Position numbers and translations under genes: made by a program. From Balanoglossus misakiensis (lineage: Eukaryota; Animalia; Hemichordata): a stretch of 64,000 nucleotides of DNA. The stretch lies in the NCBI GenBank assembly GCA_040954595.2, contig CM082578.2, forward strand, positions 2,152,831 to 2,216,830. Direction: 5' to 3'. Position 1 is the first letter of the stretch. Each line of letters begins with the position of its first letter. Under the pieces are notes generated by a model. It was not told where the DNA came from. It saw only the letters and a program-made list of their open reading frames with translations, and searched no databases. Shown here piece after piece: positions 25,529 to 52,310 of the stretch.

Positions 25529-25705
25529 CTGTAATGGAAATGGAGAAAGTACCTTATATTTTCTGTAAAATAGACATTTAATTGGCAAGCCGTCCTGCAT
25601 CAATTATTAATTCTGTACATGCACTAAAGCGCCCACACAGCTGGGTGTGTTGTATGGTCTTTAACCCTGTTTCAACTCAGAGTACTTTCTGCAATTTCAA
25701 GACAG
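25529..25705 (+). repeat. Left 177-bp terminal direct repeat
   Basis: 'ctgtaatggaaatggagaaagtacc...gcaatttcaagacag', matches 35734-35910. Confidence 0.92.
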
Positions 25706-26190
25706 ATCTTACGTGCCATTGGAGAGCTCCATTGCCTGGTCATTCATACTGTTTTCATTCATTCATTGCGGCATCAATATATTTTATCTATTCTAGCCGA
25801 GGAGCTTGGCACCTGTTGAAATGAACTCATCTGCTGTGGGCCAGTTTATTGGTGGCAGTTGAGCAGAGGAGAGCACCTTCTTTCCCGGCACGCCACCAAG
25901 TAAAGTTCCACGCTGCCCACCACAGATGCCAGCATTCATTCATTCATGCGAGTGAGTGTAATTGCAAATTTGCCTATTCTAGATTCTTACGTGCCATTGG
26001 AGAGCTCCACTGCCTGGTCAATCATACTGTTTTCATTCATTCATTGCGGCATCAATATATTTTATCTATTCTAGCCGAAGAGCTTGGCACCTGTTGAAAT
26101 GAACTCGTCTGCTGTGGGCCAGTTTATTGGTGGCAGTTGAGCAGAGGAGAGCACCTTCTTTCCCGGCACGCCACCAAGTAAAGTTCCACG
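25706..26190 (+). repeat. Subterminal 275-bp tandem repeat, about 1.75 units
   Basis: 'tcttacgtgccattggagagctcc...gcctattctaga' unit, same as 34909-35733. Confidence 0.9.
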
Positions 26191-26572
26191 TGCATTCCTG
26201 GCCCTGGTTTTATTTATGTTTACAGACAATATTGCATTTTTGTATTTTAATCAACTATAAATTTTGAATGTGTCATTTACCTGAACCGGTCATGTTGACC
26301 AGAATGATACATTTTTGCCTTCACTCACCCTATAAATATGTGATTGAGACATAGGTCATTTGCATAAGCTAACACACCAGAAAGTAAGCATATCTGTTGT
26401 TTTCCCTGTGTCACTGCCATCAAAGTAAAAATTAGACGTTGTGTAGAGCAAAATCCAATTTTTTGTTCCCAATAAACATGGATGAATTACATAGAATGTG
26501 TTTGTTGTTTACAGTCTTTAAATTGACACATTAGATTATGCACTTTACAAAACGTTTCTGAGAAACAAGTGA

Positions 26573-27076
26573 CTAACTAGTTTCTTTCCACTGTGGCCAA
26601 CGTGGTTCACTGTTTGTGTCAGAATCTCTCTGTTTTGCAAGGATTTTGAAATCATAGTGGTGACATGCATAGTGAAAATCAGCTACTTTCAAATGTCCGT
26701 CATGTTCATGCTGTAATTGAATTTTCAAAGCTGGGCTGGCGTGTTTTTTCTTATTTACATAAGTATCACACTTTATACATGTATCTTCATGGGGTTTTCT
26801 GAGTCCCGTATTTAGGTCCTCTCTCACAATTTTACGAAATATCGTATAACTGACAGTTGTTCTTCCCAGAAGAGATTGGTTGGTTATGAACTCTCGGTGT
26901 AACTGCGATATACTGTGGTCCGGCGCCAGGTACGGTTTAAATCGAGGATTCCTGCAGTAGTGAGATTCTACAATTCTGTGCCTGCGTACGTGTTCAGTGA
27001 TATCAGTCAGCAAATTTGGATTGAGTTTCCGACGATGCCCTTTGTGTCGGCCCCTTGCATCCGGCATCAGACCAGT
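26573..27076 (-). pseudogene. 5'-truncated tandem duplicate of the Sola-like N-half gene
   Basis: ~26177-27075 duplicates ~27076-27978 almost identically; translation equals the last 164 aa of the 320-aa ORF. Confidence 0.85.
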
Positions 27077-27474
27077 AAAGTTCCACGTGCATTCCTGGCC
27101 CTGGTATTATTTATGTTTACAGACAATATTGCATTTTTGTACAAGTATTTTAATCAACTATAAATTTTGAATGTGTCATTTACCTGAACCGGTCATGTTG
27201 ACCAGAATGATACATTTTTGCCTTCACTCACCCTATAAATATGTGATTGAGACATAGGTCATTTGCATAAGCTAACATACCAGAAAGTAAGCATATCTGA
27301 TGTTTTCCCTGTGTCACTGCCATCAAAGTAAAAATTAGACGTTGTGTAGAGCAAACTCCAATTTTTTGTTCTCAATAAACATGGATGAATTACATAGAAT
27401 GTGTTTGTTGTTTATAGTCTTTTAATGACACATTAGATTATGCACTTTACAAAACGTTTCTGAGAAACAAGTGA

Positions 27475-28431
27475 CTAACTAGTTTCTTTCCACTGTGGCC
27501 AACGTGGTTCACTGTTTGTGTCAGAATCTCTCTGTTTTGCAAGGATTTTGAAATCATAGTGGTGACATGCGTAGTGAAAATCAGCTACTTTCAAATGTCC
27601 GTCATGTTCATGCTGTAATTGAATTTTCAAAGCTGGGCTGGCGTGTTTTTTCTTATTTACATAAGTATCACACTTTATACATGTATCTTCATGGGGTTTT
27701 CTGAGTCCCGTATTTAGGTCCTCTCTCACAATTTTACGAAATATCGTATAACTGACAGTTGTTCTTCCCAGAAGAGATTGGTTGGTTATGAACTCTCGGT
27801 GTAACTGCGATATACTGTGGTCCGGCGCCAGGTACGGTTTAAATCGAGGATTCCTGCAGTAGTGAGATTCTACAATTCTGTGCCTGCGTACGTGTTCAGT
27901 GATATCAGTCAGCAAATTTGGATTGAGTTTCCGGCGATGCCCTTTGTGTCGGCCCCTTGCATCCGGCATCAGACCAGTTGAACAGTGCATCATTTTGCTT
28001 AGAACGGTTCTAGTCCGCCTCTCACTAATGCCAAATAATTTCAGGAATGCATTTTTGCAGACAGTAACCGTTTCACCGCCTTCATTCACCAGGTGATAAC
28101 GAACCGATTTCTTGTGTGACTTCATCTGTATATCCATCAGTTTGTAGAGCATCAAGTTCTGTTCATTATACACGCGACCATCAAAATATTTTCTCGTGGT
28201 GCCTAAAACATGCGTACTCCCAAGCTTCCGCAGACAATTCCCTTGAACGCAGGCGCATTCCAAGGAAAGACTGTCAATATCTTGAAAAGGGCGATTTTTC
28301 CTTGGTTTTTGTCTCGGACACGTCTTTTTAGAATTCCTACGTGGCTTGTTGGCTCGAGCTGACAGTTCGGTTCTGCGTTGCTGCCACACAGGAATGGGTT
28401 CCCACGCATAAGCAACTCCCCGGCAGGCCAT
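27475..28431 (-). CDS. Sola(1)-like transposase, N-terminal (non-catalytic, Cys/His DNA-binding) half as a stand-alone ORF
   Basis: 'VCKNAFLKLFGISERR', 'PDARGRH', 'ESHYCR...YL', 'VSYTIFRKIV..NTGLRKPHEDTCIKCD..H' are the motifs that precede the catalytic core in Sola1-type transposases. Ends at TAG with no catalytic domain; first ATG at 28431. Confidence 0.8.
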   Translation of the reverse strand: MACRGVAYAWEPIPVWQQRRTELSARANKPRRNSKKTCPRQKPRKNRPFQDIDSLSLECACVQGNCLRKLGSTHVLGTTRKYFDGRVYNEQNLMLYKLMDIQMKSHKKSVRYHLVNEGGETVTVCKNAFLKLFGISERRTRTVLSKMMHCSTGLMPDARGRHKGHRRKLNPNLLTDITEHVRRHRIVESHYCRNPRFKPYLAPDHSISQLHREFITNQSLLGRTTVSYTIFRKIVREDLNTGLRKPHEDTCIKCDTYVNKKKHASPALKIQLQHEHDGHLKVADFHYACHHYDFKILAKQRDSDTNSEPRWPQWKETS

Positions 28432-28553
28432 GGTCACAGCTGAAGTATTTGTTCAAGTACTGACTGACTAAACGCGGCATGGAACAAACGAACGAACGAA
28501 CGAACGACTTCACGTTCGGAAAAAAAAATCGTTGCGAGCTGTTGGGTGCCTCT

Positions 28554-29188
28554 ATTCTTCGCTATCAAATGACGTCAGACGCGTTCAGGTGGCAGTTACG
28601 TTCGCATTCAAATTTCCAGATGACGGGCAACTTCAGCAATGTTGACTTACGTAGTGCAGACAAAGACTGTGCAGACGAAATGCAATGAGGCTGATGAGGC
28701 AACATACCCGATACATGTTATGTGTTTGGTGGTTCTAAAGTAAAAACATACTCGGAAAAACTTTTACTGGATGCCGAAATATTGCTTGCCCGTCATCTGG
28801 AAATGACTGCGCCATGAGACACATTGCCAGATCACGTGATTGATAGTAAAGAATAGTTGTCGGCAACCGTTCTTTTTTATTGCTAACAATTCTTTACTAT
28901 CAATCACGTGATCTGGCCATGTGTCCCATGTCGCTGGCATTTCCAGATGACGGGCAAGCAATATTTCGTCACCTAGTAAAAGTTTTTCCGAGTATGTTTT
29001 TACTTTAAAACCGCCAAACACTTAACATGTATCGGGTATGTTGCCTCATCAGCCTCATTGCATTTCGTTTGCACAGTTTTCTCTGCACCATGTAAGTCCA
29101 CGTTGCTGAAGTTGCCCGTCATCTGGAAATTTTAATTCGAACGTAACTGCCGCCTGAGCGCGTCTGACGTCATTTGATAGCGAAGAAT
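28554..29188. promoter_or_regulatory. 635-bp imperfect palindrome between the divergent transposase halves; probable duplicated, bidirectional promoter
   Basis: Arms of ~305 bp, roughly 90% identical by hand count. Each arm has TGACGTCA, TCACGTGA and two inverted copies of TTTCCAGATGACGGGCAA. Confidence 0.75.
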
Positions 29189-29199
29189 GCTGTCAGAGC

Positions 29200-30212
29200 A
29201 TGGAAGGTGTGGTGGAAAACGAACAGAGGTTTTGTACGACCAACGATTGGATGGTGCTACATATGGACTTCCACAAGTCATTGCCGGTTCCTAAACTCAG
29301 CTCTGAAGACTTTTACTTTAAATCGAAATTGCAAATGAAGCTCCTTGGAATTTACAACGGGACAACGGAAAAGATGCATTGTTATGTATGGACAGAGCTC
29401 GATAGCAGAAAGTCTCCCGATGAAGTTATTACCTGTCTAAATCACTTTTTTATAACTCGGGTGTGACCAGCAGACATGCAGTTATTTACAGCGACAACTG
29501 CCGTGCCGAATTCAAGTGTGGGAAGTTAATGTTTTACTATGACTATCTGTTACGAAAGGGCGTGTTTCGACGAATTGACTATAAAACTCTTGTGGCTGGA
29601 CACACGTACTCCACCTGTGACCGAGTTTTTGCGTCCATTGAAAGGCATGCAAGTCGTTTCCAGAGTATAGAGACACCTCACGATTGGATATCTGTGATTC
29701 GAGGATCTTCTCTGAATGGGAACATTGGAGTTACGGAGATGACTCACAGAGACTTTTTCAATTATTCTGATTTCCTGAAAAATGAGTACGTTGTGCGTTA
29801 TGCAGATACAAACAATGTAACTTTTTACTACCAAGCCATGCACTATTTTAATTTTGGAGAAGGAGAAAGGCTTGATACCGACGGCAACCTCAGAACATTT
29901 AGTCATGCAGATAAAGTTTGGGTGAGAACATCTCTAGATCCAAGCGAGACCCCGATTGTAGTCGACTTTAGAAAGAAGAAGCAGAACCGGCGTTTACAAG
30001 ATTGTACGCTGAACAAACTTTATCAGGAACGTCGACCACTGGCGAGCAAAGTTTGGCGGGATCTTCAGAGTTTAGCCAAAAATTACCTGTCTCCGGAGGC
30101 AATAGAATTTTATAGGAATCTACCGCTTCAGGAGAGTAGTGGCACCTCTGCAGACCCGTACGCCTTTCATGATGATGACGACGATGATGATGATGATATG
30201 GGCGGTGGTTGA
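29200..30212 (+). CDS. Sola(1)-like transposase, catalytic DDD (RNase H-fold) half; one frameshift in a T6 run at ~29446-29451
   Basis: 'LHMDFHKSLPVPKL..FYFKSKL', 'CYVWTE..KSPDEVITCL', 'IYSDNCRAEFK', 'LVAGHTYSTCDRVFASIE'. One extra T joins 29200-29466 and 29463-30212 as NHFFYNSGVTSRH. Acidic C-terminal tail. Confidence 0.85.
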
Positions 30213-30705
30213 ACAAACTGTCCTTTTCATGACGACAGTGATTTTGGATATTTGGTGTGCGTGCACAGTTTATATGTAATATTTTCACACGAACGAGTTT
30301 TGACTGAATTTGATTAAAGAATCTACTCGATAATTAACAAATGTGCTGAATCGTGGTTATTATGTTGTTAATTTTTGTTTGTTTGTTTGTTTGTTTGTTT
30401 GTAAACAATTTCCGTTCATTCAACTGGCTACAAAGTTGGATTTTTGTACTGGGAAGCGATAAACTCGCACATCAAAACCGGGGAGACTCGATCATTTTTC
30501 CCTGCAGGTAGCCTGAAAAGCACCCGGGCAGAGATTACGTCATACATGTATATGGTCCACTTTAATACGAAATTATGCAAATGTGACATTTCACGGAAAC
30601 GGCGTATATAAAAGCGACCCTGGGCTATTGTTCGGAATGCGTCATCGACGAGAGAGTGACTGATAATTCTTCTACCTCGAGTCAACCATTCTGTATATAC
30701 TGAAC

Positions 30706-32031
30706 ATGGCTAGCTGGCGCAGGAAGAGACAAGGCAATGTGCGGTCTGTAATCAACGAACGGCACCGCTCAGTTCAGTGTCCCTTTCTTCAAAAGTGGAT
30801 CGGTGAGCAATTGGTATTTTCAGGTCGTTCAGAGGATGAAGTCCAGTCCAGTACTGTATTTGAGAGCTACAAATGTTGGGTTGAAAACTATTCGTCGGCG
30901 GACAATCAAGTAATGATTATGGTTACTAAAGCTCGATTTTTCAAGGTGAGAATGATCGCATTTTTCTTTCCCCCCCCCTCCCTCCCCCAAGGGACTCGTT
31001 TTCTGTCTCTTTTAAACCTGTAACTTAACGAAAAGGAAGTTTTTCACATATCTCTTCGTTGACCCTATAGCAATTTGGAGCGCGGATGCTTCAAGAGAAG
31101 AGCGTTACCAAATCAAAGTCGGCCGGGGTTAATATTTATAGAGGTGTTCGTCTGAAAGCTGGTTCGCGAAGAATCTCAACGGGGAAACCTGAGCACAGTG
31201 TACTTCAGACCAGGGCAAGGGCATTTCTTGATGACGCCAGCGTGACCGTTCCGATCGAGGTAAGAATGGTGTTTTGTTTGGACTAGGACAATAGAACGTT
31301 GCAATGAGTGTGTCAATGGGTGTCCAAGTGCAAACGTGGTCTGCTTCTGTCCACAAATGCCATTAATTTTTGGCAGGATTTATAAAATTGTCAATGAAGA
31401 ATACAAAAATGAAAAACAACAGTTAATAGCAAACTGGTAGGATTGCAAGGGCTTGTAAAACGGTACACACTGTACCAGGAAGTTTGCAACACTAATGAAG
31501 AATGTATATGATATATTTAGGTGAGAACTGTTCGCGATCGCCGGGACGCAGGACGGTGCGCGTTTTCGACGAGGGATATTCAAGCCTGGGACGTCGTCTG
31601 CGAATACCGGGGCACGGTTATTAGCGTTGAAGAAGCTAGTCGGCGTGATGAGCTTTACAGGGCAGAGGGGAAACGACCACGCATGTTCCATCTCTACATT
31701 GGAAAGAGACACGTTGTGTGAGTGTATCACTTAGTCGAATATATGGTCATATATTGCAAAGCATCTGTCGAAATAGAAAACGTAATATTGTCTATATTTT
31801 CCTCATTAACGCAGCATTGACGGATACGATGTCCCAGCCGGTGAAGAAAATTTAGCAGGCCTAATAAATCACAGTCAGCAGAACGCCAACTTGGTACCGG
31901 TTCGGATCGGAGAGCGCCTGGTTTTCTTTGCAACCAAGAATCTTTGTCAGGGAGTAGAGCTTTTGTATGATTACGGTGACGGGGGTGAAGAGGATTTCTT
32001 CAGTGGTTCTCAAACTTTTCCTGAAAATTAA
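30706..32031 (+). CDS. 4-exon protein: N-terminal RFX/D5-type winged helix + SET-domain lysine methyltransferase (PR-Set7/SETD8-like)
   Basis: Exons 30706-30945, 31071-31259, 31521-31717 and 31815-32031 splice GT-AG in frame with no stops. SET motifs 'GRCAFSTRDI..DVVCEYRG', 'IDG', 'LAGLINHS..NANL', 'ELLYDYG'; wHTH-like 'FLQKWI..VFESYKCW..FFKQF..IYRGVRLK'. Confidence 0.85.
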
Positions 32032-32936
32032 GGCATTAACACATCAACGCTTCGGGGTGTCGTAACGGCGGCGCGGCGGGGGGGGGGGGGGGACGTGAAA
32101 ATGTTTGTATCAGGAACAAAATTCCCGTGCAAATCACCTTGATCCGGGTGGGTGGACTATTCGCGACAAATGTTGAAATCATACAAAGCATTTTACTTAA
32201 TTAACCCATTTTTTTCATTTATTTGTTTACAGTTTACAACGTCATAGAGAAGTTGAACTAGAGACTGGATCAGCGTGTGTGACACCATAGTACACCAATG
32301 TTTTCTTCCGTTTGATTCAATTGTAATTTAAAACTGAGATTGCCTAACGCTTTCCCAGATTTTTTTAACCACTGAGAAACTGTGGGTTTTTTTCTGGGTT
32401 TTGGTGCGAGGTGATCTCAGTCAGTGGTGTTAATTTAATTAATCATTTTCTTTTCCTATTTACGTCGACTGAAATGTATTTTGATAGGTGATAGTCATAC
32501 CATAAAAAAAATCTTACGGCGCGACTGCCAAAATGTACATTTATTTGTCCGTTCCAAGTTATTTTGTGTATGTGTGATGGGTGCCGGTGACTGTGCAGGG
32601 TTGATTTCCCTAGAGCGACTGTTATATTCGTTTTCCAACGATGATGAATTTACATGTTATTTGCTTGGCATTTTGACGCAGAGACACTTCTGAAAACACA
32701 AACCTATTAATTATGCCACGGGTGTTAATTTATCACATTAAAAGAGGCTTTAGACGTTTGCCGCGAGCTCCTGGTGGGCAGAATCTTGTCAGCCCAAATT
32801 TGACTATAAGTACATAGCCAATGATATGACGCTCTCCCACATCCTTCGCCGCGCCTTTTCGCTGATTTACAGCATCTTGCGTAAACACTGTCATTTGATC
32901 TTGCTTGGCAGAAGTCAACTTGCTCTATACTACATT

Positions 32937-33302
32937 ATGGCGGCCAAGCTCAACTTCATCTCAGATAATGCCAAGGAGCGTTTGAGAGGCATCCTCGCCA
33001 GAAGGAGTCGCGTTTCCGGTGACTGTGTGCTCTGGACGGGTGCAGCTTGTCGAAACGGCTATGGCTCTATTACGTTCAAAGATGAGAACACTCTAACCGC
33101 CTATGTCCATCACATTGCACTCCTAATTAACGGAGTGCAATTGGTGGGCAGGCGGTTAGAGTGTTCTCATCGTTGCAACGAAAAGCTATGCATCCGCCCA
33201 GAGCACATTGTCCAGGAAACGCGACTCCTAAACATTTCACGAAAGACGTGCTTTAAATCCCCAAAAGGGGAGTGTCACCACGATCCCAGGTGCCTAAGGT
33301 GA
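32937..33302 (+). CDS. His-Me finger (His-Cys box / zinc-binding-loop homing endonuclease-like) protein
   Basis: 'CVLWTGA..NGYG..YVHHIAL..ECSHRCNEKLCIRPEHIVQETRLLNISRKTC..CHHDPRC' matches the I-PpoI-like SHxC..C..PxH...E....N..R..C pattern. Confidence 0.85.
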   Translation: MAAKLNFISDNAKERLRGILARRSRVSGDCVLWTGAACRNGYGSITFKDENTLTAYVHHIALLINGVQLVGRRLECSHRCNEKLCIRPEHIVQETRLLNISRKTCFKSPKGECHHDPRCLR

Positions 33303-34589
33303 GTAATCCTCTTCTCATTTGATATGTATTGTGTGACCCTGCAGTTGAAACGCTTTCATCAATAATTTGCGGCGCGTGGGTAATCTCGGTGTTATTGACA
33401 ATGCAGCCGGCCCAAACATTTTTAAATTAACACTGTTTCTGACTGTATTAACGAAATGTCCAATTTGCAAGTAGCCTATAGACAACCCTTTTGAATGAGT
33501 TTTGTCTCGTTGAGATTTTATACATAAGGAACAATCTAGATTTATTTTAGAAGACACTGTTCTTTTAAAACAGCTAGCATAATACAGCTAAATTTCGGAA
33601 TTTCCGGACAATTTTCGGAATTCCTTTTAAATTTGAGAAATTTTTCATCAGATATAAGTGTTACTATTTATTGGACATGTTTTTATCATTGTTTACTTTT
33701 TAAGGTCATTCTCACCCCCCCCCCCCAAAAAAAGCCACTTTAGGCTTCATGTTCAGTAAACAATCTGGAAAGTTCAGCTGAATTTTACACTGATCACACA
33801 TTTTTGGGAAGGTCTGGCGCAAAATAAAGGATGGCCAATGTAAATCTAATGTCACATTTGTAAACCTCTAAGTATTGTACACTCATTCTATTAAGTATAT
33901 GCAAATAGTACGGATAATTTTTTCGGAATGTGGAATTCCGAAATTAGTTCGGAACGTGTTAGCTGTGAAGAGATCACCACTGAGGGTTGGAAGGCCTTGC
34001 CAGAAATTAACGCGTAAAGTACGCCCTCACAGGCCATGTAAACAAGGTCAAATAAGGCCGTCTGGCAACGCGCCATTTGAGCCGAGCTGAGTTGGTCTGA
34101 GTTGCGTATCACACAGACTTAGGCTGAATGTCAGTGGAGTAACCAGTCCGTTTTAGATTTACCAATGATGTGAATTTAATTTCTTCACCCAGAAAAACAG
34201 AACACAACTTGTCTGCAACATGATGCTGACACATATGCCAGAGAAGTGGATCCGCGTTGTCAACACAGATGCCAGCATTCAAAAGGGGAGTGCCACCTCC
34301 TGAAATCAACTCATCTGCTGTTGGCCCATTTTATCTGTGGCAACTGTTCAGAGGAGACAACGTTTATTCCTAGCAAGCCACCACGCAATGTTGGGGTCAA
34401 CCTGTCAACACAGATGCAAGCATTCATGTGAGTGAGTATCAGGACTGACCTTGTATTTGCTGAATAATTCATAATGCCTATTTTAGAATTCTTAGAGGCA
34501 TTTGGAGAGTTCATTGCCTGGTCAACCAAACTACACCCCTTAACAGCTGAAACAAAATGCGTATTGTGTTCATTCATTCATTGCATCAA

Positions 34590-34860
34590 TATATATAGGC
34601 AACATGAGTATCAAGTAGCACTATTTGTTTACGATTGTATTCATGAAAACTTCCCACTAACAATTCCACAGTACTTCGTTAATATTGAACACATTTATCC
34701 AACAAGGTCAAAAGAAAAAGGGAATCTTCTGGTTCCAAAATACGCCACAAATGTGGGTCAACATACAGTGAAATATTATGGTGCTCAAATATGCAACATA
34801 TCAAATCTGTCTCATCAAAGTCATGCTTTAAAAAAGAATTGAAAAGGTATTATTTATCCA
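34590..34860 (+). mobile_element. Degenerate 3' end of a CR1/L2-group LINE
   Basis: 'YQVALFVYDCIHENFP..YF..HIYPTRS..LLVPKYATNVGQHTVKYYGAQI' resembles the ORF2 C-terminus. Confidence 0.6.
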
Positions 34861-34908
34861 TTTGACTGCTTGTTTCAAATCAGAGTACTTTCTGCAATTT
34901 CAAGACAG

Positions 34909-35733
34909 ATCTTACGTGCCATTGGAGAGCTCCATTGCCTGGTCATTCATACTGTTTTCATTCATTCATTGCGGCATCAATATATTTTATCTATTCTAGC
35001 CGAGGAGCTTGGCACCTGTTGAAATGAACTCATCTGCTGTGGGCCAGTTTATTGGTGGCAGTTGAGCAGAGGAGAGCAGCTTCTTTCCCGGCACGCCACA
35101 AAGTAAAGTTCCACGCCGCCCACCACAGATGCCAGCATTCATTCATGCGAGTGAGTGTAATTGCAAATTTGCCTATTCTAGAATTCTTACGTGCCATTGG
35201 AGAGCTCCATTGCCTGGTCATTCATACTGTTTTCATTCATTCATTGTGGCATCAATATATTTTATCTATTCTAGCCGAGGAGCTTGGCACCTGTTGAAAT
35301 GAACTCATCTGCTGTGGGCCAGTTTATTGGTGGCAGTTGAGCAGAGGAGAGCACCTTCTTTCCCGGCACGCCACAAAGTAAAGTTCCACGCCGCCCACCA
35401 CAGATGCCAGCATTCATTCATGCGAGTGAGTGTAATTGCAAATTTGCCTATTCTAGAATTCTTACGTGCCATTGGAGAGCTCCATTGCCTGGTCATTCAT
35501 ACTGTTTTCATTCATTCATTGCGGCATCAATATATTTTATCTATTCTAGCCGAGGAGCTTGGCACCTGTTGAAATGAACTCATCTGCTGTGGGCCAGTTT
35601 ATTGGTGGCAGTTGAGCAGAGGAGAGCACCTTCTTTCCCGGCACGCCACAAAGTAAAGTTCCACGCCGCCCACCACAGATGCCAGCATTCATTCATGCGA
35701 GTGAGTGTAATTGCAAATTTGCCTATTCTAGAT
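34909..35733 (+). repeat. Subterminal 275-bp tandem repeat, 3 units
   Basis: Three near-identical units (825 bp), preceded by the last ~30 bp of the terminal repeat (34879-34908); a diverged homologue lies at ~34260-34530. Confidence 0.92.
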
Positions 35734-35910
35734 CTGTAATGGAAATGGAGAAAGTACCTTATATTTTCTGTAAAATAGACATTTAATTGGCAAGCCGTCC
35801 TGCATCAATTATTAATTCTGTACATGCACTAAAGCGCCCTCACAGCTGGGTGTGTTGTATGGTCTTTAACCCTGTTTCAACTCAGAGTACTTTCTGCAAT
35901 TTCAAGACAG
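35734..35910 (+). repeat. Right 177-bp terminal direct repeat
   Basis: Matches 25529-25705. Confidence 0.92.
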
Positions 35911-36624
35911 ATATATATATATATATATATATATATAATTCACATTCATATAGATAAATACAATAAATAAATAAATAAATTAATAAATAAACAAGTCATT
36001 CAAAATATTTATTCTGTGAGTTTCTTCAAATCTTTTCTGTTACATATTTAAGATTTGTTAAATTTTCTCAAATCAATAAAATCAATGAAATATTGCCCAA
36101 TTTTAGCTTATTTTAGTGAGAGCTGCATGAGTGGATGAGTACAACAATAAAAACATGATGGCATAGCATCAGAAACAAGTATACACTAACAGAACTGGTC
36201 AAACATACACTTTGAACGGAATGCATTTCATCACTTCACATCATGTCTCCATTTTGACAATTATGTTTCAGAGAAGGTAACAACCTTCACAAGAATGCAC
36301 TTCAATAGTAGAACTACAACAATAATTTTTTTTTTAAGATAACATTGTCCATGACAATGAAAAGTCCAATATTCATAAACAATGTGAGCTAACAATTTCA
36401 GGTCTTGTCCCTTTTAAACTTGGCTGGGACTTGACTAACACAGTCAAAATAAGGAAAACTATTTTCTCACAAATAAATGATTAACCTTGAAATAATTACA
36501 TATTTAATTCAAAATGAATGAATTACTTAAATTATTAAATCAATTTATTATTGAATTAACTCTTAAATATTTAAATAATTTTATTTTGGCAGTGATCTCA
36601 CCACATTAGTGTGTGCCTTTATCT

Positions 36625-38728
36625 CTATTTATTAACTGATTTTTCATTGAGATCAAGCATTCTGTCCATTCGTTGCATTTTTTGGTTATGTTGTTGTTGC
36701 ATCAGAGACAAAAGCTCATCATTCTTCTCTTCCATTTTGGACACCACAGTAAACAGTCTATCTTGCACAGACATCCTGTCCATTCTAGTTTTTCGTTTTT
36801 TTTTACTGGGTTGGTCTGGGTTAGGGCTTGCTTCTGGAATAGTGCCACTGCCACTGGAGTCACTGCTTAATGCATCAGAGTCAATAGTTACAGTTGGATT
36901 AGTCCCCTCTCTGTGCCCATACAAATCGCTAAATCTCTCATAGTGACTGCATGTTCTTGTCTGTGTACCAGTTTGTTTTCTGCCATCGACAACTTCCATG
37001 AAGGCTTTTTTCAGATTCTTCCACTTGTCTTTGGCTTGGGTCTTCGAGATTATCACATCATGTTTGGCCATATCAGATACTACACTTTGCCTAAAAGAAT
37101 CATGTCTTATAGCACTTTTAAATTTATCATCAAGATCTGCTCTCAGTGATACAAGCAGAGTCTCTTCTCTCTCCGTCCATATGTGGATCTTGTCATGGCT
37201 ACTTGCACTGCTTGTAGGAGGGGAAGTCAGTTTTGGCTTGGTTACATCTACCTCATTTTCTTTCTGTTGACTGCTGAGTTGTTTTTCTGTTGGCCGTGTA
37301 TCTGGTTTTTCAGACTCTTGTTCTCTCTGTTTGGTTTCACTTTGCATTTGTTGTTCCCTTGGTTCTTGTTCACTTTGACTATCTTTACTTCTTATTAATT
37401 GGTTGATAATTGCCTGCTTTGTGTTAGCATCTGAAAAAAAGTAAAGGGTTAACAGCTAATGTTGATTATTGGCAACACAATTATTATTTGGGGGGATGAG
37501 GGTGGAACAGCACATTTTTTCCATTGGCCCAAGCAAAGCAAGGTAAGGTCAGTCGAAGGGCAACAATTGTCACGTAAACCACTATAGACATAAATGGTAT
37601 GGAAGAGCTACACAGCATAACAACAGATATCAAGTGCAAAGGTCTTTTTTATGGTAGCAGTATCAATATTTGGAGTGAAAATCAAAAATCATTTATCGTC
37701 AAAAAACCCCAAATTGTATGTTTTCTACCAATATTTGAAACCTTTTTGTGGCCACACTTGTGGGAGAACTTTGGCTTGAGTAAATTTTAATTTAAAATAA
37801 TGTTAAAAAAATGATTTAAAAAGATACAGCTAATGCCAGAGAAAAAATCTTGTTTCTCAAATTTTTCAGGTCAACCTTTAGAAGCGATAAACAATTTTTT
37901 TTTTCCAAACCAACATACACATATATAGACTGATGCTTGACAATCCCATAAGCTTCTATAGATTATGATCTATCATACACTAATAAAAAAACAATAACAA
38001 TTCTCATTAAATACAAATAAATAACAATTAAAAATATTCACATTGTTTTTCCTGAATGTCACAGATTAGAAAGCAATCTTTCATTTCCATTCATACTGAT
38101 GTACACGGTATCCATACTTACCCAGTGTTGTTGAGGTTATCAGATCTGCAATCTCTTTTTCCACTCTAACGGATCTACTTTCACTGGAATTTGGTTTCAA
38201 TATCCTAATTTCAACTCTGTGAAATAAAGAAATTTATTTAGAATGAAATGTCAAATAATGATAAGAAAGGTGGTTTCTTTTTTGTCCCAAATTCCGCAAG
38301 ACAAATATCAGTAAGGACGGATTGCGCCCCATAGTTTAAAATACTATATATTAAAATAAATATACATGTATTCCATCGAGATGTAGTGATTGTTATCATT
38401 TCAGGGGTGTTGGTCACCCCTTGAGGAATTGCATGCTAAAAGAGATAATCCCCCATCGCCCTGTCAGATGAATAATGAAACACTACAATTTATGATTTTT
38501 GGGGACGAAGGGCCTAATTTGTATTGTAATAACACAGTACAGGCGTCTGGTCTATTTTACCGAAATCAATACAACTATCGCATAGAATACTTCAAAGCTC
38601 CATGTCAAACCCTGTGACTGGTCAAACTTTTAATTACGTTTTGGAAAAAAACTTTCATAAAACTTTTTTTATGGTAAAAAGAAAAATAACAATAAAAGTC
38701 TGTGTACTTACGTCTGCTTGGCGGCCAT
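36625..38728 (-). CDS. Myb/SANT-like (trihelix) DNA-binding protein, PIF/Harbinger accessory-ORF type; 3 exons
   Basis: Exons 38728-38712 (MAAKQT), 38216-38122 and 37430-36625 join in frame. 'WTEREETLLV..QAKDKWKNLKKAF..CSHYERF', NLS-like KKKRK and a C-terminal coiled coil. Confidence 0.8.
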
Positions 38729-38930
38729 TTTGGCGAGCTCCTACCCTAGTATAGTCTCGGTTACCCAGACGCCTTTGCTTCTTCCGATGCTCTCCAGAAA
38801 AAGGGTCTGGGGAAATGCTATTGAAAGCTTTGTAAAACAAAATGGCCGATGTCAGGATTTTGATCATCGCCTGATTGGCTGAGCTGTCAGTATGACCTAG
38901 TATGACCCGGGTCACTGCAACTCGACCAAA

Positions 38931-41900
38931 ATGGCGGTGCAACATGTGTTAAGTGACTCTCGACAATGTGTGAGTTGTTGTCTCGTCATATCAAGAGACC
39001 GGTACTTGCTGGTTGATGCGAAAGGCAACAGGCGTCCTCTGCTAGCGTTGGTGGAGAAATTATACGGAATATCTTTGGTAGACGATAGTCGGAACTATTG
39101 TTCATATGTTTGCCGTACATGCAAACGGAAGATAGAAAGATGGGAACAGACTGTTAATACTGCCAATAAGATCAAGGAGAGTATTATGGAAAGATCGCAA
39201 CAAATTAAGAGAGTGACTGGAAAAAAGAGGCCGTTTCCATGCACACCAAATGCGGTATGTTTTGTTTGTTACTTCATTCAGCTATTGATAGTAATCACTG
39301 ACTGCCAACCGCATAATCTTTTAATGTAAAACAAAACTAAACAGTGGCAACTAAACTCCATTCAAAGAAATGGTTTAGCAGAGATCGAACCACATTTTTT
39401 TATGTTACACTGTCTACAGAGGGAAAAACTGACGGAAAATCAAGCCAAATCACGTATCCTATTGTCTTCAGAGTATGTGTTCATTCAGAGATAACTTACT
39501 CTATGTTTATGGATCCATTCTAGAACTCTAAAGTAACACCTTCCCGTATCACCCCAAGACAAGACATGAAGCGAGCGAAAACAGGCACCACAACTCCCAA
39601 AGTATGTACAATTTCTGTAAACTTTGATTTTCAAGGCCACTTACAGACAATTCAGTTTTTTGACATTGCTGTGTCATTATGTGATATACACTTGTGATTC
39701 TGATGTGTCTGGTTGTAACATTATCTGTATACTCTAGTATTACATGTAGTAATCACTCATCTTTTCATAAAGAATTGCCTGAAGTGACATCACTCAAATT
39801 CTATGTTAGATGTTATTTTGGACATTGCCTTACTACTATCACTTTGAAGGTTCCAGCTTCTGAATTTTAACTGAAATTGTGAAAAATTGTGATCATAACA
39901 ATTTTAGTCATATTGATTTAACTTTTAATGTGATAGAATCTTATAGATTTTTTTTAAAAATTGATACAGGTAATAAAAACCCCAACGCTTATTCCAAAGC
40001 CTGATGTATCCTGTGGTACACCAAGGCAGTGTTATACATGGAAACCATCATCTCAGGTATGTTATTTTTAGGACTATGGTATTAGGTGATGTGATGTCAG
40101 ACACACACACGTCAGTGTATAAAACCTGTCAGTTAAGGATGTACGTTCAGTAAAATTGAAAGTATTGTCATTTTTTTTAATTGTGGATTTTTGGATTTTC
40201 CTTTGTATGTATAATGAAAATCCGTAATAAAATATAGGGGTCACCGCGCTTGTTTTTGAAATACAGAGCCATGAATTTAGTCGAAAAAAGAAGAAAACCG
40301 ATGACTCAGCATTTTTCACCAATGGTTTGTCTATGGGCAAAATTTTTGACGCAATTTATCTCAAAATAGAGCGCGGTGACCCCTATATTTTATTTGACCA
40401 ATGAATTTATATTTGCTGAACTGAGCTTTGTGTGAAATTTCGTGAAAATGACAATAGTAGAAGTTTGTTTTCTAGCAATTTTCAATGTAATCCTATGGGA
40501 AAAAGACCGGGCGCGCGCTGTTTCCGGTTTATGTTCTGCGCGTACATCCTTAATCCCCACTTCTAAAAGAGGTAGTTCAATAGCCGAATGAAGATGTTTC
40601 AGAAACGTGAAATCTGTACACAGCACAAGTTCATTTCAATCACACCCACAACATAAACACTTTCATTACAACCCACTCGCAAAAATCTATCATATTTTTA
40701 TTTATTTTTGCAGGAAAAAACAGAGAAAGTAAGCACAGTTAAGCAGAGAAATGAGCTATCATCAAGGAAGAGGTTGCAGTTCACATCAAATGCAGCTGTG
40801 AAGAACAGTCAAAGAGTGACACGAAAACAGACGTTTACCTTTCGTACATCTACATGTAATGGTGCAACTACTCTCAGGCAGGTTATGAAGGCATTATGCA
40901 ATGGGACGGTGCAAAAGGCTGTTCAGATGCTCCTAACTTCTGATGTGTCGTTTATACGTAATGGTAGTCTAGAAGGTCTAGCTGCTGCAGCCAAACTGGA
41001 AGGAAAGAAGCATACCAAGACTTTGTGCTCTCTGAAAAATACACGTACTCTGACAAAAAAAGCTGTGCTCGATGAAGTCAAGACAAAATTACCAATTCTG
41101 TGGACAGCTTTATCCTCATTCTGTGGGAAAAGTAATGAATTGGGAGAAAACCATTTATTAATGGCGCTGTCAGTAATAATACATGGTAGAAATAGAAATT
41201 TTAATGGACTGCAACACCTCATCAGTCTCGCTATGTACCAAAGTCAACTTCAAAAAGAAGGGTATGAAATCCTCAGTAAACTTGGTGTTACCATGTCGTA
41301 CAGAACGGTGTTAAACCAACTAGACAAGGCAGCTTTGAAGGTGGACGAAACCATGAAGAGTTGGAAGGAATCAGTGGAAAATCAAGATAGGGTAAGGGAT
41401 ATTTTGATTTTAATCTGTCAAGAGGAATGTTCAGTAAATGGGTTCAAGAGATTTTGGACAACATTATGTGTTAAATACATGTATGGCTAGGAAATCAAGA
41501 TAGAGTACAGTGTACATGTTTAGATGGGTTATAATTCACACTTAACCCTTTCAACACCATTTACCTGTGTAGAGGTCCAGTTTTACCAGAGAAAACAATG
41601 GACTTGGACCAAACCATGGTGGTGAAATGGTCAATAAATGTTACATAATTATAGTTATTCAGCAATATGACATTTATCCTGTTACCAAATCTTTCTTGTA
41701 GGTTAATCAGTTTAACCAAGAGAGCACTGAGGATGTTGCTGTGCATGTTGATCATCCTTATCATATGGTTGACCCTGGAAATGAAAACTACCGGTGGATC
41801 AAGCAGATCATACATACTGTTCAACACAGGAACAAAGTCATCAGAGATCTAGAAGCGAATCAAATGCATATCGATTTAACATTGATAACCTGGATTATGA

Positions 41901-44900
41901 AGTCAGAGTGCGAAATATGACATCGGAACACCAGAATAGGTCTAAGCATTATGTTCAGGTAATTCCATTTTCTGGTATATTTTTATGTGTCTTTGTATTT
42001 TTTATCTTGTCAGTGTCTTGCTAGAATTAAAAAGAATGACTGTAGATGGCATAAGTATTGAATCTTTTCATGCATGTAAAACAAAATTACTATCAAAAAA
42101 CTTTACCGGCTGATGTTATTCATTTTATTTCAGTGAAAAGTAGGTCACTGTGGTGAAATAACCTTTTGATTTGGTACATGTGTATGATTATATAGGAATC
42201 TGTTGCCATAACTAATTTGTGCTGGTCTCATAGATTTTAATAATCTTGTGTAGCCATGCTGTGCAATGTTAAATCTGCAATAGTTACATGTCTCACATAG
42301 CATTGTATTTTTCTTGTCTGCTGTGACTGTCATTAAGGCAATGTGTGTTAAAGACAGAATCTGTTGTGAATCTTTGCCAAATGATCAACCAATTGGTGAC
42401 CTTAGAAACCTGCAAATCAGTGACTTCATTCCATCAGTTGAGGATAATTACAGCATAAGAAATGACATGATCCATGCTGTGTCACTTATTGCCATCAAAT
42501 ACATGAAAGGCTTCAAGGTATTTGAAGGTGTTATACCAAGTCATTTCAGGCATAAGTATACAGACCAAATGAAAGAAAAGTCTGCTGTGGTAAGAATATA
42601 GCAAAATAGAAAACTGGGACCAATGTCGAGGTTAATGCATGTTAGCCTTTTACCTGCATGTTGCTGATTTATTTCGATTTTTCAGTGCACGATTTGTTAT
42701 AACTAAACTACTAATATGTATGTTATGTTATTCTCGGTCTTTACAAAGCAATGTTATCCACACTCAAGGTTATAGCTATGGTTGACCCAAAGTTTGTGTC
42801 GACTTTGTGCAGTTGTCTAGTTACAGAAGTGGGTGTTTTGAAATAGTGTTTTCCTGTAAGTTACCCAAGAAAGCCTGACCAGTGTGATATTTTTCATAGT
42901 CAAGAGAACGATTCTGTTAATGTTATGATTACTGTTGTGAAGACTGAAGAGATTGACCCTGTTTAGTTTTTTGATTTGACAAGTAATTTTATGCAAAATG
43001 CACAATTTGGAAGAAAAAAAAATAGCATGAAACTTTCAGAATTCAGAAATGAACTTTAAAATAATTATTCTGTTGGAATTGAACATTCATTTCTATGTGA
43101 TGCTACTTCTTCAACAACCATAAGAAAACCTTGAATATGAGCTTCAGTGCTGTTGTTATTATTATGTTCAATTAACAAGTTTTTATTCACTGACTTTGTT
43201 ATTTGTAGATGATAATATAAATCATGTTCCACATATCTATGAAAATGTTTTACATTCAAATAAAGCCTCTCCATCAGTGGTAAGGAGGTTTCTTTCTTAT
43301 ATTCATGCAATGCATTTTATTGATTATCGTTATGACATTACAAGTAGTTTTACCTTAGGTATTTTATTACTGTTTTAGCATGTAGTTATGTTTTTTAGCT
43401 GTAAACTTGAATATTTTGGGCATAAACTTGTGTTATTCATGCAAAGTATTAGGGCCCTTAAAGTTAGGCCAAAATAAAAATATGTGCTGTTCCGATTACT
43501 CGACATACCCTAATTCTAACCCGTCGACTGTAAACTTTTTAGAGCTACGTAAACCCAGAAGTAAAAATAACAATGTCAAATATACATAATTTATGCAAAT
43601 TGTGCGAATCATGCAAGAACTAGAATGTCATTCTTCTACACTACGACGGCCAGCGAAATAAAATAAATTTGCAAAATAAAAAAATTTCCCTACCTTACCT
43701 ACCCTATTTTCGCACATATTTTTTTTGGCCTTAACTAATGTTTTTTTTCACTCTGATCAGAGGGAGGTTGTTAATTTTGTTTTCAACTGTTCTTATTTAA
43801 GCTGCCGTTGGGAATCCTTGAAAAAAATGAAAATATAACTAATGACATCATTGATGTAATGGAGTACCTGCAAAAACTGGTCCCAGGAACACGCACCGAA
43901 GTAGAAGTAGAGGAAATATATGGCAGGTAATTTAATGCTGGCCGTTTGCCATATTAAAGTTGCATTTACATTTCATTTTTTTCAGCTAGTCTTGTAAGAA
44001 TCACTTGTTTTTGCTCCTCTTCAGGAGCTGATGCTGTAGTGCTGAGTGTGTGTCAACATGCTGAGACTTGAGTATCTTGTAAATAATATACAAATTGTCT
44101 TTTATTATACCTTTAGAGAGGAGAGGTCAGAAAATCTGAGACCAATACCTCTAGGTGGGGATCAACTGACAGCGGAGAGAGTAAGAGGAGCCCATATGGC
44201 TCGTCTTGATGGTGAAACGCCAGAGGAAAGAATGGAAGGTGTTTTTGCGATGATGGAAGATTTCCATGAAAAAATGAATTTCTTGCAGGTAAACATATCA
44301 AAGATTTTGACATCTTACTGTGTAGGACAAATTTAAATTTTTAATCCTGTGAACATTGTCATATTGAAACCTGCATGGAAACTACATTCAAATTGAAACA
44401 TGAACAATGCATATAGAGGGTGTGGGACATATCACAGTCTTTAGTCAACATTATATAGATCATTACATTTATATCTGAGAAATTTTACGAAAACTAATAT
44501 GCCTGAATGGATGTAATGCAGCACATATTTTTAATTTGAGATGAAAGGTTAAAAAAACATGGTAGTTTTATCAAAACTTGTGTGAACTTCAGCCTGAACT
44601 GCTGTAGACTTCATACCCAGTGATATTGGAATATATCTCCCTTTTCAAGAGATCAGTACAATGCAACACTCAGATAAAGAGCAATGATTACATGACTATT
44701 ACACGCATATGATTTAAATGTTTTTATCCAAATGATCCACCTTTAATACAGCTGAAATCTTAAAACATCTTATTTCTCTAAAGGCTGTAATGGATAAACT
44801 GTATACCATGGCAAGTGCAAGAGATGGTGGTTATACTCTCAGCCAGTTGAGAAATCTCATTAACAGACGGAACGTTGTTGGGAAAGTGACGCAAGACTAC

Positions 44901-45811
44901 CATGCTGTGGGTGAATTTTTCGACCTTGTGACTGATGTTCACATCTTAGTAGCAATAACTGAGTACTTGAACATTGAAAACTTGGATAGCAATATTGATG
45001 TATTCCCAAGAGAAACGCACCTGTATCCAAATGAAAGAAAACATGCTGTGTTGAAAAATCTCATCGGATGTATTGTTGACAAGTTTGTCCTAAACCCAAT
45101 GAAGAAAACTTGCAGTCTATTGAGGAAAACACTGGAGGTGGTCAAGTAGTTGAGCAGGACCATGTGTACAATTATGCTACAGCCATTCTCAAGTACGGCC
45201 TATTGAGACGTATTTCCGTCATGACCACAGCAGCAGGAGATGGAGAGAGATGTTTGAGGAATTGGAGATACGCTATGCTTGTCTATCATTCCAGTCACAA
45301 GGTCAAGTATAGACTTGAGGCTTTTCTTCTCCAGGCAAGTACCAAAGCGTTGTTGTCACCACGGCTGAGTCATCAAATAACCTGGAATAGGTTCATAAAC
45401 CTATCGGGAGGAGAAGGAAATAATTTGGACGGAGACTATGTCATGGAACTCCTAAATAGACTCGCTAAGAAAAGAATAAAGACACTGGGACCAAATCACA
45501 CAAGTGCAGCTGTTGCCAGAATTGGAAAGACTCTGATGTACTGTGATGACATTGAGAAGCATTTGCTTCAGGAATTCGGTGTTGCATTTCAGTCTAGAGC
45601 ACACACAAAGGCTAGTGTTAATAGTGATATCAGAAAGATGTATGAGGAGCTGAAACATAAGTCATCTGTATTTAAATGGAATGCAGGGAGGGCACATGGT
45701 CATTTCCCAAACTTTAATGCTGACATTTTCTCTAATATTGATCCAAAAGACTTACACAGGTGGATAAACGGGAAGAAAAAAGAATATTCAACTGGTAAAT
45801 GGGCATTCTAA
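38931..45811 (+). CDS. Academ transposase (multi-exon), N-terminal Cys-rich finger; one frameshift near 45097
   Basis: Approximate exons 38931-39254, 39523-39601, 39971-40056, 40714-41391, 41702-41958, 42338-42589, 43802-43927, 44117-44288, 44784-45811. Motifs 'LSKLGVTMSY', 'IDNLD', 'LGGDQLTAERVRGA', 'EDFH', 'WNRFIN..GNNLDGDYVMELLN'. Confidence 0.85.
40137..40549. mobile_element. TTAA-flanked MITE (Kolobok-like) nested in an Academ intron; fragments also at ~160-310 and 12505-12830
   Basis: ttaa|ggatgtacg ... cgtacatcc|ttaa. Confidence 0.75.
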
Positions 45812-45896
45812 AGAAAAGCACTCTGTTGCAATGAGATGTCTTGAATTGTACCCAAATCTTGAGTATACCTGCCCACGGCAAGGGTTATTGCTTTAA

Positions 45897-46241
45897 AGGG
45901 ACAAAGTCTCTCTCTCCCGGGCCTTTTTCCATTAATTATATTTGATACAAGACACCATTTATGTTATTCTACAAGTGGATATATAGAGAATCCACATTCA
46001 ACGACACACAACTTCCATCCCGTTTGTAGGATATGAGAATAAAAATCCTGCCAAAATGAATAAATGGTAAACACCGATTATTCATTTTGGCGAGTTTTTC
46101 ACTCTCCTGTCTACAAGTTGGATGGATGTTGTGTGTGGTTGAAGGTTGATTCACTTCATATCCACATGTAGAATAACATAAATGGTGTCTTGTATCAAAT
46201 ATAATTAATGGAAAAAGGGCAGCGAAAGAGACTTTGTCCCT
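45897..46241. mobile_element. TTAA-flanked MITE (Kolobok-like); relatives at ~3420-3585 and 15236-15548
   Basis: ttaa|agggacaaagtctc ... agactttgtccct|ttaa, with internal inverted 'tatccacatgtagaataaca' blocks. Confidence 0.75.
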
Positions 46242-46562
46242 TTAATGAATATTTTCCTTTTCTTCAAAAATTTGCTTTCATCTGTAAGCTTAGGGTGATA
46301 ATTTTTAGCTCAAATTTGATATACATGTGAGGTTATATAAGCTGAAGTGGATGGCATCTGTATGTATGTATATAAAGTAAGGGTAGGTGGAGAAACGGTA
46401 AGCATAATCTCTATGTTTCGTGTGTCAGTGAGATGAGCGAGTATAGTGACTCACGAAACATAATTGTGTGTAAACCAATCAGCAACTCTTTTATTACGAT
46501 ACTGGAGGCCACCAGCCCAAAAGTATAATCATCAATCATAAAATGAACAAATAGATAAATAA

Positions 46563-47640
46563 CACTGTATGTAAGAGAACACATAGAAGTTCTCATGATA
46601 CTCATTCAAATGTACAGGTCATTATACACTGTAAGAAAGCACATAGAAGTTCTCATGATACTCATTCAAATGTACAGGTCATTATACACTGTAAGAGAAC
46701 ACATAGAAGTTCTCATGATACTCATTCAAATGTACAGGTCATTATACACTGTAAGAGAACACATAGAAGTTCTCATGATACTCATTCAAATGTACAGGTC
46801 ATTACACACTGTAAGAGAACACATAGAAGTTCTCATGATACTCATTCAAATGTACAGGTCATTATACACTGTAAGAGAACACATAGAAGTTCTCATGATA
46901 CTCATTCAAATGTACAGGTCATTATACACTGTAAGAGAACACATAGAAGTTCTCATGATACTCATTCAAATGTACAGGTCATTACACACTGTAAGAGAAC
47001 ACATAGAAGTTCTCATGATACTCATTCAAATGTACAGGTCATTACACACTGTAAGAGAACACATAGAAGTTCTCATGATACTCATTCAAATGTACAGGTC
47101 ATTATACACTGTAAGAGAACACATAGAAGTTCTCATGATACTCATTCAAATGTACAGGTCATTATACACTGTAAGAGAACACATAGAAGTTCTCATGAAA
47201 CTCATTCAAATGTACAGGTCATTATACACTGTAAGACAGCACATAGAAGTTCTCATGATACTCATTCAAATGTACAGGTCATTATACACTGTAAGAGAAC
47301 ACATAGAAGTTCTCATGATACTCATTCAAATGTACAGGTCATTATACACTGTAAGAGAACACATAGAAGTTCTCATGATACTCATTCAAATGTACAGGTC
47401 ATTATACACTGTAAGACAGCACATAGAAGTTCTCATGATACTCATTCAAATGTACAGGTCATTATACACTGTAAGAGAACACATAGAAGTTCTCATGATA
47501 CTCATTCAAATGTACAGGTCATTATACACTGTAAGAGAACACATAGAAGTTCTCATGATACTCATTCAAATGTACAGGTCATTACACACTGTAAGAGAAC
47601 ACATAGAAGTTCTCATGCATTCAAATGTACAGGTCATTAT
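46563..47640. repeat. 60-bp minisatellite, about 18 copies
   Basis: Unit 'attatacactgtaagagaacacatagaagttctcatgatactcattcaaatgtacaggtc' repeats on every 60-bp line. Confidence 0.97.
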
Positions 47641-47651
47641 ACCCAACAGTT

Positions 47652-50265: not shown

Positions 50266-50444
50266 TTTGGTCGAGTTGCAGTGACCCGGGTCATACTAGG
50301 TCATACTGACAGCTCAGCCAATCAGGCGATGATCAAAATCCTGACATCGGCCATTTTGTTTTACAAAGCTTTCAATAGCATTTCCCCAGACCCTTTTTCT
50401 GGAGAGCATCGGAAGAAGCAAAGGCGTCTGGGTAACCGAGACTA

Positions 50445-50887
50445 GATTCACCCTTGACATGTGTTTTTTATACAAAATTATCCACTCACAGTATGATTCA
50501 CCTGGTATTTTAAATCAAATATGTTTTTATGCCCCTAGTAGAAATTTACGCAAGAAACCCTTTTTTAAACCCGACTTGTGCTCCGTTAATTGTAGACAAT
50601 TCTCGACAATGCTCAGATGCATGTCTGCTTTTAATGAGATTTCTTCTAAATGTAATATTGATATTTTTTCTACGCTCCATAGTTTTAAATCTATTTTATC
50701 CAGTCATTTTAATGGTACTGTTCCTTGATTTGTATTTATATTTTACGTGACATGTGTTACTTTTTTCGGTGTCTTGTTTATCAGTTAGTTTTTGTTTTGT
50801 GATTTAATTGTTTTTATTGTTTCCCAGATCTGTAAGTTGGTTTGCCCGTTGATCTGTGTAATAAATAAATAAATTAAAAAAAAAAAA
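50445..50887 (+). mobile_element. 3' fragment of the CR1-like LINE, cut exactly at the Academ TIR
   Basis: Near-identical to 60599-61044, with (AAAT)n/poly(A) tail followed by GTAAGCT. Confidence 0.9.
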
Positions 50888-51119
50888 GTAAGCTGGACAC
50901 TACTCACTCCGAGCCCGACCTGGTAATTTGTATGTTGTCCATCGAGCGCCTATAGCTTAGACCTATACAGGAGAGAACGGTTTATGAAGTTATGTTCAAC
51001 AAAAATATATGATCATGGAATTAAAGAATTTGGAGAAAAAAAATATAATTAAAAATGGACGTTTACGACGACAAAAAGGAAGACTGTTTAATGCAAAAGT
51101 TAAGAAAAAGGAAAAATTC

Positions 51120-52190: not shown

Positions 52191-52310
52191 AAGCCTACGG
52201 CACGTGGTATTCCCAGGCGGTCACCCATCCAAGTACTAACCACGCCCAACGCAGCTTAACTTCGGTGATCGGACGAGAACCGGTGTATTCGACGTGGTAT
52301 GGCCGTAGGC
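52191..52310 (-). rRNA. rrn5: 5S rRNA
   Basis: 120-nt copy with box A and box C. Confidence 0.97.

Follow-up and report, generated by a model that had tools for sequence, protein, structure and literature searches.

At positions 30,706 to 32,031 of the 64,000-nucleotide stretch of Balanoglossus misakiensis DNA analysed here (the window, eukaryotic DNA with a GC content of ~38%), there is a gene that the stop-to-stop ORF list contains only as pieces, just as the original prediction had said. Its predicted product joins a winged helix of the RFX/D5 type to a SETD8-like SET domain, and the question is what such a protein does and whether it belongs to a transposon or to the host. In the reading that we favor, and on which our judgement is evenly balanced, the gene is cargo of a composite-like DNA transposon and its product acts on chromatin as a DNA-tethered lysine methyltransferase.

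The gene is composed of four exons on the forward strand. Exon 1 (30706..30945, residues 1–80) encodes a basic N-terminus and helices 1–3 of the winged helix, while exon 2 (31071..31259, residues 81–143) encodes the end of helix 3, the wing hairpin and a linker helix. Exon 3 (31521..31717, residues 144–209) encodes the N-terminal half of the SET domain, including AGRC and CEYRG, and exon 4 (31815..32031, residues 210–280 and the stop codon) encodes its C-terminal half, including LINHS and ELLYDYGD, followed by an acidic tail. A TATA-like box (30605..30614, forward strand), presumably functional, is positioned ~100 nt 5′ of the ATG. The four exons splice to 843 nt, encoding 280 residues and a stop codon with no internal stop, and introns 1, 2 and 3 (125, 261 and 97 nt, respectively) each conform to GT...AG. 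The NHS and ELLYDY motifs of the original prediction are located in the spliced product at residues 224–229 (GLINHS) and 258–264 (LLYDYGD). The GC content of the coding sequence is 49%, and that of its introns is 33–44%.

Each intron was varied singly and scored against the Ptychodera flava protein XP_070545977.1, and in every case the proposed intron scored highest: intron 1 is the best of 135 open models (659 GT-AG pairs), intron 2 the best of 64 (841 pairs) and intron 3 the best of 66 (431 pairs). Consistent with the predicted junctions, the position of intron 1 is also common to four distant ORFs described below. A single unbroken 1616-nt DNA contig of run X1, which is possibly the source of the assembly itself, matches 30411–31985 with 3 substitutions and 18 gap letters. 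The four-exon gene is intact, its predicted splicing being based on sequence and homology. Downstream of the stop codon AATAAA is absent and the nearest ATTAAA is at 32737, which counts against transposon cargo.

The P. flava protein (P0001, 278 residues, uncharacterized) was found by a search with exon 4. It contains the same two domains and aligns with the spliced product end to end with 180 of 280 columns identical (64%) and no gaps at the three junctions, in agreement with the claim of an intact protein of ~280 residues. The SET part is 72% conserved between the two acorn worms, and the linker 51%. P. flava has one such protein, on one contig, and this is the only full-length relative that the protein searches returned. 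A HMMER search with exon 1 among 1.84 billion representatives yielded five matches, namely XP_070545977.1 and four ORFs of 32–37% identity (P0003–P0006), so the distribution of the family is patchy, a point in favor of transposon cargo. Because the likeness of these four ORFs ends exactly at the intron-1 position, at RF[FYC]K|V, they probably represent the first exons of related genes with this intron position; with them, the gene family extends beyond what is annotated.

Other searches returned no further relative. Specifically, none of the 20 candidates of a word-index search with exon 1 is a relative, the 2040 candidates of an alignment search include only 4 relatives, all of them already in the family, a phage tblastn search and scans of contigs of viral, prokaryote and metagenome origin yielded no match for the gene, and neither PHROGs nor NCBIfam contains a match for it. 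The protein searches gave no orthologue from echinoderms, amphioxus or vertebrates. Two candidates were discarded: a viral locus (L001), which is spurious, since it belongs to a phage head cluster and the match is on the strand opposite the portal gene, and a 132-residue protein with 49% identity over part of exon 4 (P0002), which is an ordinary SET fragment, misaligned, and was left out of alignments.

The original prediction placed an RFX- or D5-primase-type winged helix at the N-terminus, and the modelled fold supports this. In an Atlas feature search with exon 1, Pox_D5 clusters account for 25 of 30 matches, with a top score of 0.97. An AlphaFold2 model was computed from six sequences for residues 1–112 of the P. 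flava orthologue rather than of the window protein; its mean pLDDT is 82, rising to ~90 over residues 31–110, and its elements follow the order helix-strand-strand-helix-helix-helix-hairpin. A VIA structure search of 48,161 chains with this model retrieved RFX5 (Z 9.2, rmsd 2.8, 78 aligned residues), RFX1 (Z 9.2, rmsd 2.2, 72 aligned), the phage P4 origin-binding domain (Z 7.9, rmsd 2.5, 79 aligned) and ASFV PrimPol (Z 7.5, rmsd 2.6, 74 aligned), with the following match at 6.3; the top match is a nucleosome-bound RFX5 entry. In Foldseek searches against the PDB, two RFX chains rank first and ASFV PrimPol third, none of them at E 0.001, while matches among viral models are mostly primase-helicases, the best being a phage primase (E 4.2e-5).

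The predicted domain thus has the same fold (Z 7.5–9.2) as the RFX DNA-binding domain and the C-terminal winged helix of D5, P4-alpha and ASFV C962R (Pfam Pox_D5), from which it differs by an extra short helix (residues 67–72) and by the lack of a Pfam match. Its identity to RFX and D5 domains is 11–22%, which counts against the favored reading, and neither Pfam nor the PDB gave an RFX-type sequence match, exon-1 alignments against the PDB yielding nothing under E 0.27. Since the fold matches and the sequence searches do not, the N-terminal domain, as modelled, is of the RFX/D5 type by fold, while by its sequence it appears to lie outside the RFX family. With 23 K/R against 10 D/E, the first 125 residues are basic. 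In RFX and D5 systems the winged helix is joined to a dimerisation domain or a helicase, respectively, whereas here it is fused to SET.

The SET domain is recognized in both of its halves by Pfam PF00856 (cut-off 22.4 bits), exon 3 scoring 22.4 bits (E 1.7e-4), exactly at the cut-off, and exon 4 scoring 31 bits (E 3.6e-7); the P. flava protein scores 49.5 bits. In a PDB sequence search with the latter, SETD8 is the best match (E 9e-10), ahead of KMT2D (3e-6), and an Atlas structure search places H4K20 methyltransferase clusters closest. Specifically, residues Y172, N227-H228-S229, Y260, Y262 and D264 align with SETD8 Y245, N298-H299-S300, Y334, Y336 and D338, and the catalytic tyrosines are kept in both acorn worm species. 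In SETD8, the equivalent residues serve in SAM binding and in the lysine channel and restrict the product to monomethyl-lysine. By these sequence comparisons, the claim of a PR-Set7/SETD8-type domain is upheld for the active site, and the protein is likely to be an active lysine methyltransferase; the domain is divergent, and SETD8 is the nearest among solved structures.

The residues of SETD8 around the substrate are altered. The arginine of GRLINH, the CYMYYF strand and the C-flanking tryptophan all matter in SETD8; here, R295 is replaced by glycine (AGLINHS), the substrate strand CYMYYF by RPRMFHL, and the C-flanking tryptophan is absent, an EEDFF tail standing in its place. Because these three elements differ, specificity for H4K20 is uncertain. 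SETD8, the H4K20 monomethylase also called PR-Set7 or KMT5A, carries an N-terminal tail where the protein studied here has a predicted folded winged helix. Its activity on nucleosomes needs an arginine anchor, R188/R192, according to the accessible text of PMC7893823, and R114 and K119 are found at about the same spacing in both acorn worm species, a weak positional match.

The gene sits in a 10.4-kb segment (25529–35910) embedded in a run of (AT)n. At its left end there is a 177-bp direct repeat, A (25529..25705, forward strand), which carries imperfect 24-bp inverted ends of its own (19/24, a value reached by 0 of 100000 shuffles) and starts and ends with CTGT..ACAG. The right copy (35734..35910, forward strand) differs from it by one mismatch. 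The (AT)n tracts 5′ of the left copy and 3′ of the right copy mask any target duplication of the element; Sola1 transposons are marked by a 4-bp AT-rich target duplication, by terminal inverted repeats and by dispersed copies. Inside the left end there are 1.7 copies of a 275-bp repeat, B (25708..26190, forward strand), and the right end is preceded by three B units, on whose 5′ side lie the final 40 bp of a third A copy (34871..35733, forward strand); diverged B sequence of 68–75% lies at 34261–34594. Directly 5′ of the truncated third A there is a stub (34600–34870) that, from its motifs, we take to be the 3′ end of a LINE-like element; it has no Pfam match. Both the stub and the truncated A lie within the segment and count against the cargo reading, as does the depth of A and B in X1, far above that of the cassette, which marks them as a high-copy family. 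A and B may thus be high-copy elements independent of the cassette that happen to lie on either side of it. The family has the arrangement A-B-B-B-A in (AT)n, in which 177-bp units with self-contained inverted ends enclose 275-bp tandem units, and it may be a non-autonomous composite-like element.

Between the repeats, the segment contains the two halves of a transposase. The N-terminal half (27475..28433, reverse strand, 318 residues from the ATG) has no Pfam match, while the catalytic C-terminal half (29200..30212, forward strand) matches Pfam DUF7869 (E 9.8e-12), the only transposase profile matched. The ORFs contain the motifs ESHY, CxxC, DxxK, SDNC and GHxxxxCDRxF, which we presume to be those of Sola1. 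The halves stand head-to-head, each with an ATG and a stop codon, ~170 bp apart when intervening MITEs are discounted, and X1 contigs bridge the arrangement, which is explained either by an inversion that became fixed or by a transposase that is naturally split; a 5-bp inverted microhomology is present at both ends of the putative inversion. That the two halves are opposed counts against cargo. The catalytic half contains a frameshift near 29450 in this assembly, which may be private to it, because the bridging contigs of X1 and X2 carry one extra letter within 29186–29614 relative to the window.

Two further rearrangements affect the transposase region. The 3′ part of the N-terminal half is present in a 900-bp tandem duplication (26177–27978, 98%; the duplicate at 26177–27076), which is probably real because the X1 contig covering it has twice the depth of the neighboring contigs. 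Two inverted MITE insertions (28556..29186; 28556–28852 and 28891–29186), 34 bp apart and flanked by AT duplications, belong to a very high-copy family of ~297 bp; the bridging X1 and X2 contigs lack the pair, which is polymorphic between the window and the runs. A 635-bp palindrome first considered as a transposon end was rejected, being these two MITEs.

Downstream of the gene, an intact 121-residue ORF (32937..33302, forward strand) encodes a His-Me finger nuclease of the His-Cys box, I-PpoI-like type (Pfam PF05551, E 1.4e-12; I-PpoI, E 0.011), whose H98, N119 and zinc ligands align with those of I-PpoI, the catalytic positions being taken from the accessible text of PMC9587614.

The original prediction held that the gene is transposon-borne, and this we consider rather probable because of the anatomy of the segment and the lack of CpG depletion. 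Observed/expected CpG is 1.15 in the SET coding sequence, 0.96 in the cassette and 0.87–1.15 across the three cassette genes, all undepleted, against 0.32 in host coding stretches (2.8 kb); two 2.5-kb host windows at 0.89–0.93 count against this argument. The claim thus stands on repeats, transposase halves, nuclease and CpG, and gains no support from copies: no second copy of the cassette was found by X1 contig depth or protein searches. In X1, the contig of the gene has a depth of 693, within the 435–875 of unique host contigs on its left, depth not being equal to copy number. A depth of ~700 is either the single-copy level or the result of amplification of the left 35 kb. The depth step at the right edge, considered as ~20 copies of the segment, was rejected as such, since the host-gene contigs on the left are equally deep.

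The sequences around the segment are as follows. Positions 1–25200 (forward strand) contain exons of a large host gene of the Sushi/EGF/HYR type, EGF being assigned by Pfam and the rest read from the sequence, and no EGF exon lies beyond 25190 within the window. To the right of the (AT)n run, 36003–37627 has an X1 depth of 29–44, against 700–780 inside the segment, that is, ~twentyfold lower. A rare insertion allele or a mis-join would explain the drop, as would an amplified segment that borders on genuinely single-copy DNA. The low-depth stretch contains a Myb/SANT ORF (36628–37455, reverse strand), which lies outside the repeats and has a CpG observed/expected of 0.22. A young element with perfect 185-nt inverted ends, which we take to be Academ-like, occupies 38752–50444 and contains zf-AD, DUF6589 and RecQ-type helicase exons and an array of 18 × 60 bp (46570–47642). 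Beyond it, a 5S rRNA array of eight genes with a unit of ~1065 bp (50885–63619) is interrupted twice by LINE reverse-transcriptase ORFs (54939–56871 and 58027–60882), possibly those of a 5S-targeting retroelement.

If the gene is indeed transposon cargo, the basic winged helix would replace the targeting of SETD8 and keep the enzyme bound, in or close to the element, to DNA or nucleosomes. The SET domain, with tyrosine in the switch position, would add a single methyl group, and the mark would be placed on H4K20 or a similar nearby lysine, H4K20 being the first candidate substrate. The likely gain would be open or replication-competent chromatin, whether on the element in place or on its excised form. 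The weakest step of this mechanism is that the enzyme would be directed to the element that carries it, because both X-box-like sites (0 strict sites within the element, and 1 relaxed site against 0.6 expected) and iterated binding sites or repeated words in the cassette are at chance level. The specific version of the mechanism, in which a new animal lineage of composite-like, Sola-type elements combines self-inverted direct repeats, a split transposase, a homing-type nuclease and a winged-helix-SET protein that writes H4K20 on its own DNA, is doubtful.

It is unlikely that the gene lost its former mobility and is now a single-copy gene, domesticated or stranded, that is fixed at one locus of this lineage and serves the host as a DNA-binding chromatin writer, surrounded by transposon parts that are relics or later insertions. 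Its depth, equal to that of the host gene on one unbroken contig, the single P. flava protein and the better conservation of the SET part than of the linker all fit such a gene, as do its three ordinary introns, its TATA box and the rearranged state of the neighboring transposase. Against it, the gene lies inside 177-bp repeats that are one base apart, the adjoining nuclease is intact with all catalytic residues present, and CpG is undepleted alike over the three cassette genes. Nor did the searches return an orthologue from other well-annotated deuterostomes. A single-copy conserved host gene, the outcome that would have spoken against the original prediction, may thus hold in its first half, given depth and the one full-length relative, while conservation is unlikely because echinoderm, amphioxus and vertebrate orthologues did not appear.

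Equally unlikely is a transposon-borne protein with another task, whether methylation of a different lysine, action on a non-histone protein, for instance the transposase itself or a silencing factor of the host, or binding without catalysis. The altered substrate strand, R295 and C-flanking tryptophan speak for this, as does exon 3, which when searched alone is nearest to KMT2C/D (E 1e-4), and the cassette has neither X-box enrichment nor an iterated binding site. However, the whole domain is nearest to SETD8 and its structural matches lead to H4K20 methyltransferases, both species retain the catalytic tyrosines, and R114/K119 recall the spacing of the SETD8 anchor, weak as that match is (PMC7893823, accessible text).

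Finally, it is very unlikely that the locus descends from a Polinton-like element or an endogenous DNA virus, of which the C-terminal winged helix of a helicase, fused to a viral SET, was left among transposons: the fold neighbors of the winged helix are indeed viral primase-helicases, and accessible texts describe SET genes that in adomaviruses lie 5′ of a replicase ending in an RFX-like winged helix (10.1101/341131) and SET genes in some MELD viruses (PMC8502044), but capsid, polymerase, helicase and integrase families are absent from the long ORFs scanned (26 out of 61, the main ORFs of the cassette among them), no real relative was found among the viral contigs or phages searched, and the domain order and introns suit a nuclear gene.

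KolobokP composite-like transposons (Kojima and Bao 2022) have direct repeats at their termini that themselves carry inverted ends, and a homing-type nuclease, an arrangement paralleled here, as far as the accessible text describes it (PMC9587614). By that text, their repeats are ~450 or 660 bp long and end in 5′-RR..YY-3′, whereas those described here are 177 bp and end in CT..AG; their transposase is Kolobok-type, while the one described here is split, matches DUF7869 and appears Sola-like. The term 'SET' appears 0 times in the main text of that paper.

SET genes are known from other transposons, namely HarbingerS and Phytophthora MuDR (PMC12730594) and Helitrons and the red-algal Plavaka PAG2 (10.1101/2025.02.11.637652), a precedent that favors the reading of transposon cargo. 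These resemble the present case in having a SET accessory gene, but they belong to other superfamilies, and the accessible parts of the two sources do not mention an RFX/D5 fusion. HarbingerS combines a Harbinger transposase with a Myb gene beside SET, whereas here no scanned ORF matches a Harbinger transposase and the Myb/SANT ORF is outside the repeats. SETMAR of primates, in which a DNA-binding domain and SET act at transposon-derived sites (PMC8616336, accessible text), is the reverse case, a host gene that captured a transposase. In adomaviruses, a SET gene stands beside a replicase that ends in an RFX-like winged helix (10.1101/341131 and PMC13696692, in their accessible parts), so that the two domains are in separate virus genes and the winged helix ends a helicase, while here they are fused; adomavirus and MELD SET genes also have replicase and capsid genes as neighbors, and none is present among the cassette ORFs scanned.

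The accessible parts of PMC13565253 and PMC5751038 contain nothing on a fusion of an RFX/D5 winged helix with SET. Full-text literature searches yielded neither such a fusion nor a Sola-type element with direct end repeats, entries for which Repbase or supplements may contain. By this literature search, SET genes in transposons are known, and what appears to be new is the winged-helix-SET fusion and its setting.

A DNA-binding fold and a SETD8-like writer within 280 residues make this protein a small, testable animal candidate for a transposon that modifies its own chromatin, and the KolobokP layout of direct repeats and a homing nuclease would be extended to a second type of transposase. If the gene is instead domesticated, acorn worms would have gained a chromatin regulator much as primates gained SETMAR. 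In Arabidopsis, the VANDAL protein VANC binds and modifies the chromatin of its own transposon, and in the accessible text of the sources it is not a methyltransferase, in contrast to the SET enzyme described here (10.1101/2025.02.11.637652, PMC12730594). If the specific version of the mechanism, which we hold to be doubtful, is true, a self-marking element in acorn worms would be the animal counterpart of this plant anti-silencing, achieved through a histone writer.
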